The notes beneath the pieces were generated by a model. The model worked only from the letters and a program-made list of their open reading frames with translations. It was not told the origin of the DNA and ran no database searches. Below, one piece after another: positions 210-8,973 of a stretch of DNA of 64,000 nt. Within the stretch, counting starts at the first letter, position 1. Every line of letters starts with the position of its first letter. The DNA comes from Candidatus Woesearchaeota archaeon. GTDB lineage: Archaea > Nanobdellota > Nanobdellia > Woesearchaeales > GW2011-AR4. The stretch lies in the NCBI GenBank assembly GCA_016181305.1, contig JACOZN010000002.1:11619-75618 (forward strand), written 5' to 3'. Both the position numbers and the translations under genes were made by a program.

Positions 210-1010
210 ATGAAACACCAACTGGAAGAAACAATAAGCCAAAAAGAAGGTGAAGCAGCTGAAAGCCCTAGAGTTGTGGTGAATAGTGACGGAAGCGTAT
301 TTGAAAGAGAAAGCCAAGATATTGCAAAACAGGTTGAGGAAGCAGACAAGATTGTATCTGATTACTTGGATATGCGTTTTGATGGTGCTTACAGGATTGA
401 CATAAGCAGGCAGCACAGGACTTCAATGGCGCTGTTGCATGTCTATAAAGGCAACAGGGGCAGAATGGACTTCCCGACAATAAGCGTTAGGAAGGGCAAT
501 GCGGCTGTGATTCATGAAACAACGCATGTGATAGCGCCCAACTACAACAGGTTTCTGGCAGAGGGCTTGGCGGTTTATATTCAGGATAAATTCTCCCAAC
601 AAAGCGTGCCGCCGACTTTCGGCCAAGATTTGCATGGCGGAGCGTCTGAGAGCGAGCTTAAGCTGGAAGACTTAATAAAAGAAACAAGGGATTATTACTA
701 TTACTGGAGCAGGAGAATGTCCCAGTCTCAAGAGCGAAGAAATGCCTATTTGCACGCAGGCTCTTTTGTAAAATTCTTGATAGAAAATAAAGCGTATGGC
801 GCTGATGAAAAATCAAGGCTGGAGCGATTTAAAAAGCTGTACGCGCTGGCTGACAATGGAGAAGGGAGAATGTTTGATATTGCTTATGGAAAACCGCTGC
901 CAGAAATGGAAAAGGAGTGGCGTTCGTATATTTCAGGGCAAAAACAAAGGAGTGAAATGCTTGAGCCTATGCTTGCCATTAACCAAAAACCAGTTTCAGC
1001 AAGGCTATAG
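210..1010 (+). CDS. Gluzincin-type (peptidase MA-like) metallopeptidase
   Basis: HETTH zinc motif followed by FLAEGLAVY and GSFVKFLIE; shares PPTxGxDLH and GSFV..LIE motifs with 1485..3014. Confidence 0.7.
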   Translation: MKHQLEETISQKEGEAAESPRVVVNSDGSVFERESQDIAKQVEEADKIVSDYLDMRFDGAYRIDISRQHRTSMALLHVYKGNRGRMDFPTISVRKGNAAVIHETTHVIAPNYNRFLAEGLAVYIQDKFSQQSVPPTFGQDLHGGASESELKLEDLIKETRDYYYYWSRRMSQSQERRNAYLHAGSFVKFLIENKAYGADEKSRLERFKKLYALADNGEGRMFDIAYGKPLPEMEKEWRSYISGQKQRSEMLEPMLAINQKPVSARL

Positions 1011-1063
1011 AATTGCACAAAATAAAAAAGCTTATAAATATGTTCTGTAATTAAGTCTTTATA

Positions 1064-1381
1064 ATGTTATTTCCGCAAATAAAAAAGAGGCTGAAAAGCT
1101 TTATTCTTGAGGAAGAAGGCAAGATTTCAAAACATTCTGTTCTAAAGATTGGCTCTGTGCTTTTGGCGTCAGGTTTAGGCGCAATCGGGCATGTTTCTGC
1201 TGGGTGCGGTTGCAGTTGTGGTTGCGGTTGCAGTTGTGGTTGCGGATGCAGTTGCGGGTGTGCGTGTGCTGGGTGTGCCAGCGGAGGTGCGGCGGGCGGT
1301 GCGGCAGGTGCCTCTGGTACAAGTGGTACTACAAGTTGTGGTAGTTGTGGTGGCTGTGGTGGAGGCGGCGGCACATGTTAA
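1064..1381 (+). CDS. Putative RiPP precursor peptide: leader plus Cys/Gly-rich core
   Basis: 46-aa charged-then-hydrophobic leader, then (GCGCSC)x3-GCAC...; 16 Cys in a 59-aa core; AT-rich TATA-like upstream region; rSAM/SPASM gene 2.8 kb downstream. Confidence 0.75.
   Translation: MLFPQIKKRLKSFILEEEGKISKHSVLKIGSVLLASGLGAIGHVSAGCGCSCGCGCSCGCGCSCGCACAGCASGGAAGGAAGASGTSGTTSCGSCGGCGGGGGTC
1202..1255 (+). repeat. 18-bp tandem repeat x3 encoding GCGCSC
   Basis: gggtgcggttgcagttgt / ggttgcggttgcagttgt / ggttgcggatgcagttgc. Confidence 0.95.
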
Positions 1382-1484
1382 CAAAGGTTTATTGATAGAT
1401 AATTAAACTAATTGCTTATAATTTCATCACTTCTATATAGTAAAAATAGAAAGATTTATAAATGGCTTTTAATAAGCAAAAAGT

Positions 1485-5926: not shown

Positions 5927-5969
5927 AACAAACAGAAAACCTAAAAAAGCACAGCAAATTACTTCTTTT

Positions 5970-7160
5970 ATGAACCTCTTATTCATCAGCAAATACCCCC
6001 CTATCGAAGGCGGCGTTTCCTCGCAAACCTATTGGCTCGCCAAAGCCCTGGGGGAGAAAGGGCACAAGGTTTACGTAGCATCAAACTGCTGGGAAGTTGA
6101 GCAGAGATACAGGGAGCAGATTGAGGAAAATGAGCTAAGCCTGCTTGAGCCTAAAAATGTCGAGCTTTTCAGCACTTCTTTAGATTTCAGGTCTGCAATA
6201 CCATTCTCAAGGTCTTACGAGTCAAGGATAGCCAGCATCGCACTGGATATAATAAAAAATTACAAAATTGACGCTATTTATTCCCATTACCTTCTTCCCT
6301 ATGGAGTTTCAGCTTTAATGCTTAAAAAACTTACAAACAAGCCATGGCTTTTGCAGCACGCAGGCTCTGACATAACAAGGCTTTTTTCTTTTCCTCAATT
6401 AAAGTCGATTTTTATAGAATGCTTCAACAATGCAGATAAAGTGATTGGCTACTCAAATACACGGCAAAAATTCATTGAAAACAGCCTCGATACAAACAAG
6501 CTAGTCCCCATTGGAAGGAGTATCAACCTAAATGAATTTAATCCAAATGTCAATCCATTTGATTTTTCACAATACGGCATTGAAAAAGATACAACTGTTT
6601 TTACCTATTTCGGCAAGATTTCTGGATTGAAAAAAACCTATGAGTTTGTAAATGCGGCATCTGAAATAAAAAATGAGGATTTCAAGATTGTTTTTGTGAC
6701 AGAAGGCGGAAATCATGCTGACGAGCTTAAAGAGCATGCAAAAAAACTGGGAATTCTGGACAAATTGGTTTTCATGCCGTTCGTCCCTCCGTGGAAAGTA
6801 CCGCCAATAATGAAAGCTTCAACATGCATAGTCTGCCCGGAAAGCGAGGAAACCCCTTACCTGCCAAAAGGGACACATGGCCCGCAGATTGCAAGAGAAG
6901 CAATGGCAGTTGGTAAGCCCGTTATCATTGGAAAAGGCGTCAAAGAAAAGGGAATTTATTTAAAAACAACAGAGAATCATAATATTTTGGTGGTGGATTC
7001 AACAAATAAAGAGGATTTTGCAGATATTTTAAAATTTGTAATAAACAACAAGGAAAAAATAGAAGAAATCGGCAGTAATGCAAGAAAGTTTGCAGAGGCA
7101 AATGAGGATTTTGAATCTTACATAAAATCAATGGAAACATTATTTAATTCATTGTTATAA
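5970..7160 (+). CDS. GT-B fold glycosyltransferase (family 4-like)
   Basis: KYPPIEGGVS N-terminal loop, LAKALGEKGHKV, HYLLPY, HAGSD, REAMAVGKPVI. Confidence 0.85.
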   Translation: MNLLFISKYPPIEGGVSSQTYWLAKALGEKGHKVYVASNCWEVEQRYREQIEENELSLLEPKNVELFSTSLDFRSAIPFSRSYESRIASIALDIIKNYKIDAIYSHYLLPYGVSALMLKKLTNKPWLLQHAGSDITRLFSFPQLKSIFIECFNNADKVIGYSNTRQKFIENSLDTNKLVPIGRSINLNEFNPNVNPFDFSQYGIEKDTTVFTYFGKISGLKKTYEFVNAASEIKNEDFKIVFVTEGGNHADELKEHAKKLGILDKLVFMPFVPPWKVPPIMKASTCIVCPESEETPYLPKGTHGPQIAREAMAVGKPVIIGKGVKEKGIYLKTTENHNILVVDSTNKEDFADILKFVINNKEKIEEIGSNARKFAEANEDFESYIKSMETLFNSLL

Positions 7161-7164
7161 TAAA

Positions 7165-8973
7165 ATGAGCAATAAAAAGCTAATTTTGATTTGCATCCCA
7201 TTTATTGTTTTTGTAGTGCTTATAATTAATGCACACTCCAAAACCACCGAAGACAATGACTGGAAATACCCGGGTTTTGACCAATACACAAACAATTTCT
7301 ACCACAAGCAGTCACAAATAAACTCAAAAAACGCTAAAAATCTCGAGATAAAATGGGCTTGGGAAATCCCAAGAAGAAGCCCCCCAGTCAGGGATAAAGA
7401 AGGCAATGTTGTGAGAGGAGGCTGGACACCACCCTTGGTTATTGAGGGTATTGTGTATACTGCAACCTTTGACAACCAATTCTTTGCTTTGGATGCAAAA
7501 AATGGGAATGCAATATGCAAGTACGAAGTTCCAAAGGATAAAATTGACAGCCAGTTGAGATATTCTGGAAGGGGTATAACCTATCACAACGGCAGCATTT
7601 TAATGACAGCAGCGGACTGCAGCATTTATGCTTTTGACTCAAAAGACTGCAGTGTGAAGTGGACAATGCCAAGCACCTGCGAGAATATCCCTGGGAACCT
7701 GGGCTTTTACAGGGGAATGAATCCGCCATTGATCTTTGGTGATTATCTTATAGCCACAAATACCGGCGGAGAGTATGGTGCCAGAGGTTTCGTGGCTGCC
7801 TATAGCTTAAGCACAAAAAAACTGCTTTGGAGATGGTATGTAACTCCTCCACAAGTTGAAGGCCCAAAAAACTGGCATATAGAAGCTCACAAAGGAAATG
7901 TTAAGCCTTACAAGGATGATTGGGGCAATTCCAGCTTGATTGGCGGCGGCACAATATGGGGCTGGCCTGCAATAGACACAGAAAAGGGAATTTTGTACCT
8001 TGGAACAGGAGACCCTTCTCCAGATTTAAACGGCGCAACACGCCCCGGGCCAAATCTTTACACAGACTCTGTTGTTGCCCTGAACATATCAAATGGGAAA
8101 ATGATGTGGTACTACCAGCTTACAAGCCATGACTTATACGACCATGACATTGGGGTAAGCATAATTCTGGAGGAAATTGAAATCAATGGAAAAAAAGAGA
8201 AAATTATCGTGGCAGGCTCCAAAAGCGGGTATGTCTTGGTTTTAAAAGCCAATAACGGCAAGCTATTGTACAATCCAGTCCCAATTTCTATACATTTCAA
8301 TGATATAAATGACAACAATCCAAATGCGAACCTTACTTTAGAAAGTGCCGAAGGCAAAGTAATTTGCCCAGCAAACAATGGAGGCGTGCAGGCATCTCCT
8401 GCATTTGCTGATGGGAATATCTATGTAGTTGGCCAAAATCAATGTTTGAAAATGGTTTCAAATCCTGTCAAAAGCAGGGAAGATTTTTTCGGAGGAAGAT
8501 CGATCAATGCAGGGCTAGAAGAGAATTCTACTTTGCATGTTATTGATGCTGCAACCGGAAAAATCCTATGGACTTTTTTCATGAACAGCTCCTACAGGAA
8601 AGGCTCTGCCACTATAAGCGGGGACTTGGTTTTGCTGGGGGCGGACAACGGCTTTGCATACATTCTGGACAGAAACAATGGCAGGCTTTTGTTCCAGCTT
8701 GATGTCGGAGCGCCAATCGGAGCGCCAATCACAATTGGTGCAGATGCAGACGGCAAAATGAGAATATTTGTGCCTTTCGGCAGCAGAGGAGCCAGAGGAA
8801 GGGAAAATGGAATAATCGCTCTGGGATTGAAGGAGAGCAAATTTAATGCTGGATATTTGTTAGCCGTCTTGATTGTTTTGATAATATTATTTGCAATATA
8901 CAAATACAAAAAATTGAAAAAGCAAAAACCAGCAAAAAATCCAAAAATCAAGTCAAAAACCAAAAGCTTTTAA
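7165..8973 (+). CDS. PQQ-dependent dehydrogenase-like beta-propeller, N-terminal signal and C-terminal TM anchor
   Basis: Repeated ALDAKNG/A.D..TGK.LW tryptophan-docking motifs; WGWPAID...LYLGTGDPSP; NLYTDSVVAL; HDLYDHD. Confidence 0.8.
   Translation: MSNKKLILICIPFIVFVVLIINAHSKTTEDNDWKYPGFDQYTNNFYHKQSQINSKNAKNLEIKWAWEIPRRSPPVRDKEGNVVRGGWTPPLVIEGIVYTATFDNQFFALDAKNGNAICKYEVPKDKIDSQLRYSGRGITYHNGSILMTAADCSIYAFDSKDCSVKWTMPSTCENIPGNLGFYRGMNPPLIFGDYLIATNTGGEYGARGFVAAYSLSTKKLLWRWYVTPPQVEGPKNWHIEAHKGNVKPYKDDWGNSSLIGGGTIWGWPAIDTEKGILYLGTGDPSPDLNGATRPGPNLYTDSVVALNISNGKMMWYYQLTSHDLYDHDIGVSIILEEIEINGKKEKIIVAGSKSGYVLVLKANNGKLLYNPVPISIHFNDINDNNPNANLTLESAEGKVICPANNGGVQASPAFADGNIYVVGQNQCLKMVSNPVKSREDFFGGRSINAGLEENSTLHVIDAATGKILWTFFMNSSYRKGSATISGDLVLLGADNGFAYILDRNNGRLLFQLDVGAPIGAPITIGADADGKMRIFVPFGSRGARGRENGIIALGLKESKFNAGYLLAVLIVLIILFAIYKYKKLKKQKPAKNPKIKSKTKSF

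Follow-up and report, generated by a model that had tools for sequence, protein, structure and literature searches.

A Cys-repeat precursor locus in a Woesearchaeota archaeon, probably a reduced variant of the His-Xaa-Ser maturation system

The His-Xaa-Ser system (HXS; HxsD-HxsB-HxsC-HxsA; TIGR03976-03979) was predicted in silico years before it was shown to be an anti-phage system in Escherichia coli in 2026 (Li et al., Nat Commun; PMC13128918). The E. coli HxsB, HxsC and HxsD process the exported HxsA, which acquires a +8 Da modification; its cleavage depends on radical S-adenosylmethionine (rSAM) chemistry, and the CxxxCxxC motif of HxsB is required for HxsA processing (PMC13128918). Hxs chemistry is otherwise unsolved, this mass change and the rSAM-dependent cleavage being all that is known from E. 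coli. NCBIfam models already exist for HxsA3 and HxsD-like proteins, and HxsA3-class islands (NF038309, NF038315) occur in DPANN archaea and bacteria of the Candidate Phyla Radiation (CPR), but our literature search turned up no paper that deals with Hxs variants of archaea or the CPR, or with poly-(Cys-Xaa) precursors. Another system for comparison, the ACGX system (TIGR04340 and TIGR04341), is an in silico prediction only, and no relevant literature was found on it. Here we describe a locus of a Candidatus Woesearchaeota archaeon in which a Cys-rich precursor peptide is encoded near an rSAM/SPASM enzyme, at the start of a 64,000-nucleotide stretch of contig JACOZN010000002.1 (the window, contig positions 11619-75618; genome of 1.07 Mb, 78% complete). 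Because the precursor leader is HxsA3-like and genes for HxsD-like, HxsB-like and A24 peptidase proteins lie upstream, we consider it probable that the locus represents the archaeal/CPR-type (HxsA3-class) His-Xaa-Ser maturation system in a reduced, Cys-repeat form. Its product would be a surface peptide that is exported, modified by the rSAM enzyme and probably glycosylated.

A first-pass annotation of the window had described seven genes at 210-8973 as a dedicated peptide-modification locus belonging to no named system. All seven open reading frames (ORFs) are present at those positions with the identities proposed, co-oriented on the plus strand and separated by gaps of 4-103 nt, and a conserved leader linked to rSAM homologues supports a dedicated peptide-modification locus. 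The boundary has to be moved, however, since four further components of the unit lie 0.9-3.8 kb upstream of the window start on the same contig, and it is these components, together with the HxsA3-like leader, that speak against a system without a name.

The locus resembles HXS in having HxsD-like and HxsB-like proteins in the order HxsD then HxsB, and in coupling an exported repeat peptide with a special N-terminal region to rSAM maturation and N-terminal processing. It differs in that the core is (Cys-Xaa)n and not His-Xaa-Ser, a peptidoglycan-binding domain is absent, HxsB is catalytically dead, an unrelated tailed SPASM enzyme takes the place of HxsC, genes for an A24 peptidase, a GT4 glycosyltransferase and a binding protein are added, and the host is a DPANN archaeon. 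Moreover, a Cys/Gly array cannot bind DNA electrostatically as proposed for HxsA. The HxsA3-class islands are closer, sharing the leader motif, the A24-HxsD-HxsB core and, beside the precursor, the same rSAM/SPASM family (L087, L049, L059, L018, L019 and L020; these and similar labels are our handles for related loci, genomes and proteins). Active rSAM and B12-rSAM enzymes are numerous in those islands and the cores are mostly rich in His, whereas our locus has a single active rSAM enzyme and a Cys/Gly core, and adds the dead HxsB, the binding protein and MA-type peptidases.

The precursor, present as a single copy in the genome, comprises a 46-aa leader (residues 1-46, including a hydrophobic segment) and a 59-aa core composed only of Gly (23), Cys (16), Ser (8), Ala (8) and Thr (4), with no His. 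Residues 3-37 align to positions 2-36 of the HxsA3 profile NF038309 (E 3.8e-8). The leader motif, P-x-I-K-K-x-I-x-S-F-x-L-E-E-E-G-x-I-S-K followed by the hydrophobic segment, is kept across 16 sequences of other organisms with P4, K7, K8, F13, E17, G19, I21 and G30 invariant, and this conservation confirms the reading frame. The core includes an 18-nt tandem repeat (period 18, 3.0 copies, 94% matches by Tandem Repeats Finder, TRF), and the three differences among its units are all synonymous third positions in the precursor frame. No length variation of the repeat region was reported.

With a profile built from four leaders, the leader was found beside rSAM homologues in several lineages, Woesearchaeota-type contigs among them. 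The same leader adjoins a homologue of the locus enzyme in L087 (Nanobdellota), L049 (Nealsonbacteria) and L059 (Omnitrophota), where it precedes His-x-Ser, His/Ser/Cys and His-rich cores, respectively, and the precursor leader aligns with those of these three HxS-core members; in L019 it precedes a Thr/Ser core and in L018 a Cys/Gly core. Cys/Gly cores were also found in G005, G032, G036, L115 and six metagenome proteins. The leaders of seven close relatives (L115, P0121-P0126) are 64-76% identical to that of the precursor, while their cores vary, those of the six metagenome proteins being entirely different. Searched against 1.84 billion representatives, the leader profile matched 711 cluster representatives, and among the best 150 of these about 47 cores were His-rich, 12 Cys-rich, 6 mixed His and Cys and 4 Thr/Ser-rich, a sample skewed to Cys-type relatives because most of the profile sequences are of that type. 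In some leader-bearing precursors (L112:934-1617, corresponding to G036:C5 on the minus strand; P0137, P0157 and P0213) a Hint/intein-like domain stands directly after the Cys/Gly core, as at the junction ...GGGAYC|LLNDSLV...TNDHP. This arrangement suggests autocatalytic release of the core or ligation of its C-terminus via a thioester. The Hxs leader thus appears as a portable address for very different cores, His-, Cys- or Thr/Ser-rich or Hint-fused.

A core made purely of Cys, Gly, Ser, Ala and Thr has the classic composition of a metal-thiolate peptide, and the precursor carries its own hydrophobic export segment upstream of a pilus locus and Cys-rich surface proteins. It could accordingly be an unmodified metal-binding or structural surface peptide, metallothionein-like or disulfide-rich, with the rSAM and GT4 enzymes acting elsewhere, for example on pilins or surface glycans. 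We think this unlikely, as the leader is of the Hxs type and not a plain signal peptide, travels with rSAM, HxsD, HxsB and A24 genes across phyla, and also precedes His-x-Ser cores, which are rSAM-modified in E. coli.

The upstream genes reinforce the assignment as a His-Xaa-Ser relative. HxsD homologues in related loci match PF27806 (HxsD). The HxsB-like protein matches TIGR03978 over profile positions 2-87 and 115-451 and skips the cluster segment, and alignment revealed that its CxxxCxxC motif was lost through a clean 18-residue deletion, which is common to the source genome, G005 and G036; the motif is retained in L018 and L019. The dead protein is nevertheless full length in the three genomes (39-55% identity), with its end also present in L115, and this retention indicates selection on a non-catalytic role. 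Its N-terminal 98 residues were modelled as a beta3-alpha3 fold for which Foldseek returned nothing significant (E > 0.25), the top rows being mostly recognition elements (RREs) of ribosomally synthesised and post-translationally modified peptides (RiPPs), namely McbB, TbiB1, PbtF, MccB, TigE and CteB. Because this domain is RRE-like and the rSAM/SPASM enzyme, which begins directly at its rSAM motif, has no N-terminal RRE-like domain of its own, the dead HxsB-like protein may serve as a scaffold or leader binder. A catalytically dead rSAM protein can then be retained, apparently as a scaffold. Complex prediction of the rSAM/SPASM enzyme with HxsD gave a score of 0.00, which counts neither for nor against binding.

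Judged from its sequence and its company, the A24 peptidase belongs to the system. The contexts of its catalytic Asp residues, D21 (D-x-K-x-x-x-I-x-N) and G72-D73-A-K-L, are invariant in six homologues; PF01478 matches the homologues in L019 and L106, and the locus protein itself matches Arc_PepC only, weakly. Of 61 genomes from the genus and order, an identical set of 15 encodes A24-like and HxsD proteins, and in 13 of these the two genes stand side by side, although the genomes are kin, so that this is a pattern and not a statistic.

The rSAM/SPASM enzyme, the only match of this type in the whole genome, consists of a core (residues 1-350) and a C-terminal tail of about 220 aa. All eleven cluster Cys are present, Cys21/25/28 and eight Cys at 254-343. 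Its best NCBIfam match is the rSAM enzyme of the ACGX system (TIGR04340), at 190.2 bits against a cut-off of 400. Membership of a non-peptide rSAM family, which would have refuted the first-pass annotation, finds no support, all NCBIfam matches being far under their cut-offs and the best one being peptide-linked. A heme/NirJ-type function was rejected on the scores of AhbD (140 bits, cut-off 500) and NirJ (120, cut-off 515), beside which MoaA reached 66 (cut-off 325); PQQ (pyrroloquinoline quinone) or mycofactocin biosynthesis was likewise rejected on those of PqqE (98, cut-off 381) and MftC (100, cut-off 265). PADLOC reported generic viperin-like rSAM similarity only. The ACGX system shares with the locus its top-ranking named rSAM family and a Cys-Gly repeat peptide beside a SPASM enzyme, but the locus leader is of the Hxs type, and ACGX membership was rejected because the rSAM score is under the cut-off and TIGR04341 (ACGX-repeat peptide) had no match at E <= 10 in the precursor or the genome.

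The nearest solved structures are those of PqqE, CteB and SkfB (6c8v, 5wgg and 6efn), which are distant (E 1e-10 to 1e-12), and similarity to the PapB, StsB, CteB and SkfB maturases is distant only. SkfB, CteB, PapB and PqqE have in common with the locus enzyme the SPASM architecture and a Cys-rich substrate; they differ in that the locus enzyme is without an N-terminal RRE, the RRE-like domain residing on the separate dead HxsB. Sactipeptide and ranthipeptide substrates have a defined Cys pattern, whereas the locus precursor is a long repeat.

Full-length homologues with the tail (long form) are common in metagenomes at 33-93% identity, and their hosts are named Woesearchaeota or Nanoarchaeia. 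Short-form homologues of about 350-380 aa (35-42% identity) occur widely among bacteria, for the most part in the absence of Hxs genes. One subgroup of the short form, from Thermoplasmatota, Anaerolineales and other lineages, is found with PqqD, an Asn-synthase-like protein, a squalene-cyclase-like protein and a GT4 orthologue (L046:8498-14504, L072:6381-11641), a RiPP-like set that we do not recognise as a named system. Since the wider rSAM family neighbours PqqD and Asn-synthase genes, it appears to be a family of peptide maturases.

The tail has a confidently predicted fold (predicted local distance difference test, pLDDT, 82). Foldseek found nothing at E <= 0.001 in the PDB, all rows from the ESM Atlas had template modelling (TM) scores < 0.5, and VIA-align gave a best Z of 7.3 (STAS/RsbS-like) and Z of 5-6 for partial rSAM barrels, values that unrelated folds commonly reach. 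A 401-aa protein in the same cluster of G005 (L106:2962-4167) has a segment related to the tail (31% identity, about 100 aa) fused to an S-adenosylmethionine-dependent methyltransferase domain, which would fit a docking role for the tail.

Among relatives the recurrent features are the leader, the long-form rSAM/SPASM enzyme, an adjacent GT4 gene and the A24, HxsD and HxsB set, and a long-form rSAM gene with HxsD, HxsB, A24 and GT4 neighbours was found in 6-8 independent loci. L015/G036, L018, L019 and L020 all encode HxsD (PF27806), an HxsB-type rSAM protein and A24, with GT4 in all except L020, usually right after the rSAM gene. The P0017 locus has HxsD, HxsB, A24 and GT4; that of P0016 has HxsD, HxsB and GT4, and a 374-aa gene beside HxsD without a recorded A24 match. 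G005 displays the contiguous order A24, HxsD, HxsD2, HxsB-like, methyltransferase, precursor, binding protein and rSAM, and L115 the contiguous order hxsB, peptidase and precursor. GT4 orthologues adjoin the long-form rSAM in the L015, L016/17, L018, L019, G034, G035, P0016 and P0017 loci and also occur in the PqqD/Asn-synthase RiPP-like clusters, making GT4 a recurrent partner of this rSAM family and, if it acts on the peptide, an unusual tailoring for ribosomal peptides. Thus the linkage of rSAM homologues to a similar leader peptide, GT4 and peptidases that the first-pass annotation had put up for checking is kept for the first two and not for the peptidases, the 509-aa one having no match in 60 relatives at E <= 1e-5.

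Taken as a reduced Hxs variant, the locus could work as follows. The 105-aa precursor would be made with its conserved leader and hydrophobic segment. The dead HxsB-like protein, through its RRE-like N-domain, and/or the HxsD proteins would bind the leader, and the one rSAM/SPASM enzyme that is active would then modify the core of (Cys-Xaa)n. For this step the nearest solved SPASM enzymes and the Cys-rich substrate make thioether links from Cys to carbon the default and simplest guess, but a thio-oxazole-type or other change is possible; thioether formation or glycosylation, favoured in the first-pass annotation, is thus plausible. The coupled cytoplasmic GT4 would add sugar to Ser, Thr or Cys, the hydrophobic segment would drive insertion or export of the product, and the dedicated A24 aspartyl peptidase would take off its N-terminal region by a cut in the invariant E-E-G↓K/Q-I-S or close to it. 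In this lineage, extracellular trimming by Tat-exported (twin-arginine translocation) MA-type metallopeptidases may follow, and the anchored binding protein may keep the product on the cell surface. The more specific picture, in which the SPASM rSAM enzyme, guided by the RRE-bearing dead HxsB and HxsD, makes a densely cross-linked poly-(Cys-Xaa) product that is glycosylated by GT4, released by A24 and displayed at the surface (e.g. as an antiviral or metal-handling layer), is put forward only tentatively; if true, the chemistry would be new to RiPPs or protein maturation, and the locus would offer a minimal model of the Hxs reaction. Its one active rSAM enzyme and its very simple substrate, (Cys-Gly/Ser)n, make the locus a tractable target for co-expression.

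Several observations weigh against the assignment to the Hxs systems. All family scores are under their curated cut-offs, narrowly for HxsD (TIGR03976, cut-off 50) and more widely for HxsB (113 bits, cut-off 370) and for HxsA3 as a whole protein (33 bits, cut-off 65, with profile positions 37-81 unmatched). The best genome match to HxsC (TIGR03977) is the rSAM/SPASM enzyme itself, at 49 bits against 268 and over the generic core only; by its sequence, that enzyme is not an HxsC orthologue. HxsB is dead at the locus, and the rSAM tail, with 8-10 Cys in distant homologues, has 0-1 in the clade of the locus. E-E-G↓K is unlike a canonical class III signal site, in which position -2 is basic and the residues from +1 onwards are hydrophobic. 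Because no other A24 peptidase was detected in the 78%-complete genome, the locus enzyme might also serve the nearby pilus locus. The locus is split by a toxin-antitoxin cassette and an hxsB remnant, the mark of an insertion site, and the matches to the locus DNA are groundwater-metagenome DNA contigs, with no RNA dataset among them. Finally, the closest relative, G015, has no precursor, rSAM or GT4 gene on the contig concerned and no rSAM match genome-wide. It keeps the upstream half only, with A24 and HxsD 87-91% identical to those of the locus and the dead HxsB, and therefore the two halves are separable and the system may be eroding in the genus.

These findings bear on a second explanation, that the locus is an eroding remnant from which no modified product arises, the genus losing the system while the Cys-rich ORF and the rSAM gene persist by inertia or in separate roles. 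Loss of the rSAM motif from HxsB and of the Cys set from the rSAM tail, insertion of the toxin-antitoxin cassette and hxsB remnant, and the half-locus of G015 would all fit it, as would the precursor of G036, which is 18 kb away from the rSAM gene, and the presence of the long-form rSAM in only about 5 of 36 same-genus genomes. On the other hand, all ORFs are intact, the rSAM enzyme retains all eleven cluster Cys, the dead HxsB is kept at full length with its end seen in L115, leaders stay conserved in the seven close relatives despite their varying cores, and the repeat-unit differences are all synonymous. We therefore hold a mere remnant to be improbable. The downstream half nevertheless looks, from sequence comparison, like a movable cassette, and system loss in parts of the genus appears real; this loss is the main reason why our confidence in a reduced, Cys-repeat Hxs variant is not higher.

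Further signs of flux surround the precursor. The remnant at window 27-167 is closer to the hxsB end of L115, where hxsB leads straight into the peptidase and precursor genes. Contigs of four groundwater runs diverge at window 1420-1470, just past the precursor gene, a pattern resembling the edge of a cassette, or of a recombined segment, in relatives that occur together. In G015 (L116, G015:C36 7625-11901) two or three PIN-like/UPF0175 cassettes are each followed by an hxsB 3'-end remnant, so that the hxsB-like 3' end looks like a repeated insertion site; after the cassettes come unrelated AAA ATPase, arylsulfotransferase-like and phosphodiesterase-like genes.

The last of the seven genes encodes a PQQ-type propeller whose closest solved structure is XoxF (6dam, E 6e-42). 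It keeps GGE, the stacking Trp and D-H-D (XoxF-like D-x-D), and is without the vicinal Cys pair. The rSAM/SPASM enzyme QhpD cross-links QhpC of quinohemoprotein amine dehydrogenase, and the gene set here is like qhp in pairing an rSAM/SPASM enzyme with a small Cys peptide and in including a peptidase and also a propeller, which here starts 4 nt after GT4 with its XoxF-like active-site residues kept. The cross-linked Cys peptide might thus be a small subunit or cofactor source for the quinoprotein. We regard this as very improbable: the propeller is absent from the L018, L019, L020, P0016 and P0017 loci, including some with Cys-rich precursors, the link of precursor, HxsD, HxsB and A24 is much broader, and no QhpD-type match is among the best NCBIfam rows. 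The quinoprotein, counted as part of the system in the first-pass annotation, is syntenic within the genus only and adjoins GT4 only in the same-genus genomes G036 and G035; for this reason we treat it as probably a neighbour. PQQ synthesis was not detectable in the genome, whose sole rSAM/SPASM enzyme is not PqqE.

The remaining genes appear to be lineage-specific additions to the Hxs-type locus. A homologue of the binding protein lies directly after the precursor in G005, P0121 and P0123 and near it in P0122, and it is because of these neighbours that the protein is assigned to the Cys-repeat subgroup. An export/uptake pathway, as first proposed, finds no support, there being no transporter genes beside the binding protein at the locus. 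The 509-aa and 266-aa peptidases share 25% identity over 232 aa (BLASTP, E 1e-9); the second half of the former is a further copy without HExxH (BLASTP, E 6e-4), and its Tat-type signal reads SRRTVLLKG. The 266-aa family is rare, with 7 matches in 5.8 billion proteins, and the only other contig found with a peptidase beside the precursor is L115, where a 76%-identical 294-aa protein with a Tat-type signal is encoded after hxsB and before a Cys-repeat precursor. In contigs from the probable source runs (X1, X4), 87 extra letters stand between window positions 250 and 251, exactly where the L115 homologue has its Tat signal and membrane segment, and the 266-aa protein as assembled may reflect a deletion or a slip in the assembly. 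From the position of the genes, extracellular trimming of the exported precursor by Tat-exported MA peptidases is plausible.

By analogy with HXS, the product could form an envelope barrier against viruses, which would place an envelope-level antiviral barrier in ultrasmall archaea; metal binding or a stiffening of the surface would suit the Cys/Gly array just as well. The toxin-antitoxin-rich, variable neighbourhood and the hypervariable cores fit a role in HXS-like defence or surface variation, but are not proof of it.

The features of the locus are collected in the table below. A promoter and terminator scan, which covered the bacterial consensus only, gave no more promoters than shuffled sequence.

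Table. Features of the Cys-repeat locus; positions are those of the window unless marked as contig positions
Feature	Position	Strand	Remarks
A24-type membrane peptidase	contig 7802-8806		upstream of window
HxsD-like protein	contig 8842-9213		TIGR03976, E 1.5e-11, 44.5 bits
Second HxsD-like protein, 76 aa	contig 9201-9431		
HxsB-like protein, 414 aa	contig 9433-10677		TIGR03978, E 1e-32
PIN-like/UPF0175 toxin-antitoxin pair	contig 10663-11468	-	
hxsB-like 3'-end remnant, 46 aa	27-167	+	phmmer 7e-4 to HxsB-like C-terminus
MA-clan HExxH metallopeptidase, 266 aa as assembled	210-1010	+	HETTH at residue 102; weak Peptidase_MA_2 (PF13485)
Precursor, 105 aa, 16 Cys	1064-1381	+	HxsA3-type leader and Cys/Gly core
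Three 18-nt tandem units encoding (GCGCSC)x3	1201-1254	+	TRF
Two-domain peptidase paralogue, 509 aa	1485-3014	+	HEITH at residue 130; Tat-type signal
Peripla_BP_6 binding protein, N-terminal membrane anchor	3048-4208	+	Pfam E 3e-21
rSAM/SPASM enzyme	4226-5926	+	Radical_SAM E 1.5e-22; SPASM E 8e-12
GT4 (GT-B) glycosyltransferase, cytoplasmic	5970-7160	+	Pfam Glycos_transf_1
Anchored extracellular PQQ-type eight-bladed propeller	7165-8973	+	PF01011 E 1.5e-52; signal peptide, C-terminal anchor

Downstream of the locus, window 9001-11657 encodes a Cys-rich secreted surface protein with acidic double-disulfide repeats and a CarboxypepD_reg domain; its coding sequence is divided between two frames that overlap, and the switch near 9445-9450 comes from a frameshift or an error in sequencing. 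The locus at 15727-19020, for type IV pilus-like assembly, encodes a T2SSE ATPase and a pair of T2SSF membrane proteins, with small ORFs that have no family match on its flanks. Three tRNAs of 114, 84 and at least 132 nt were reported by Rfam at 55386-55499, 58027-58110 and 63869-64000 and none of them by ARAGORN; they are probably intron-bearing archaeal tRNAs. The minus strand at 20969-22873 encodes a 634-aa fusion of an amino-acid permease (residues 8-391) and an S-adenosylmethionine-dependent methyltransferase domain (residues 454-581).

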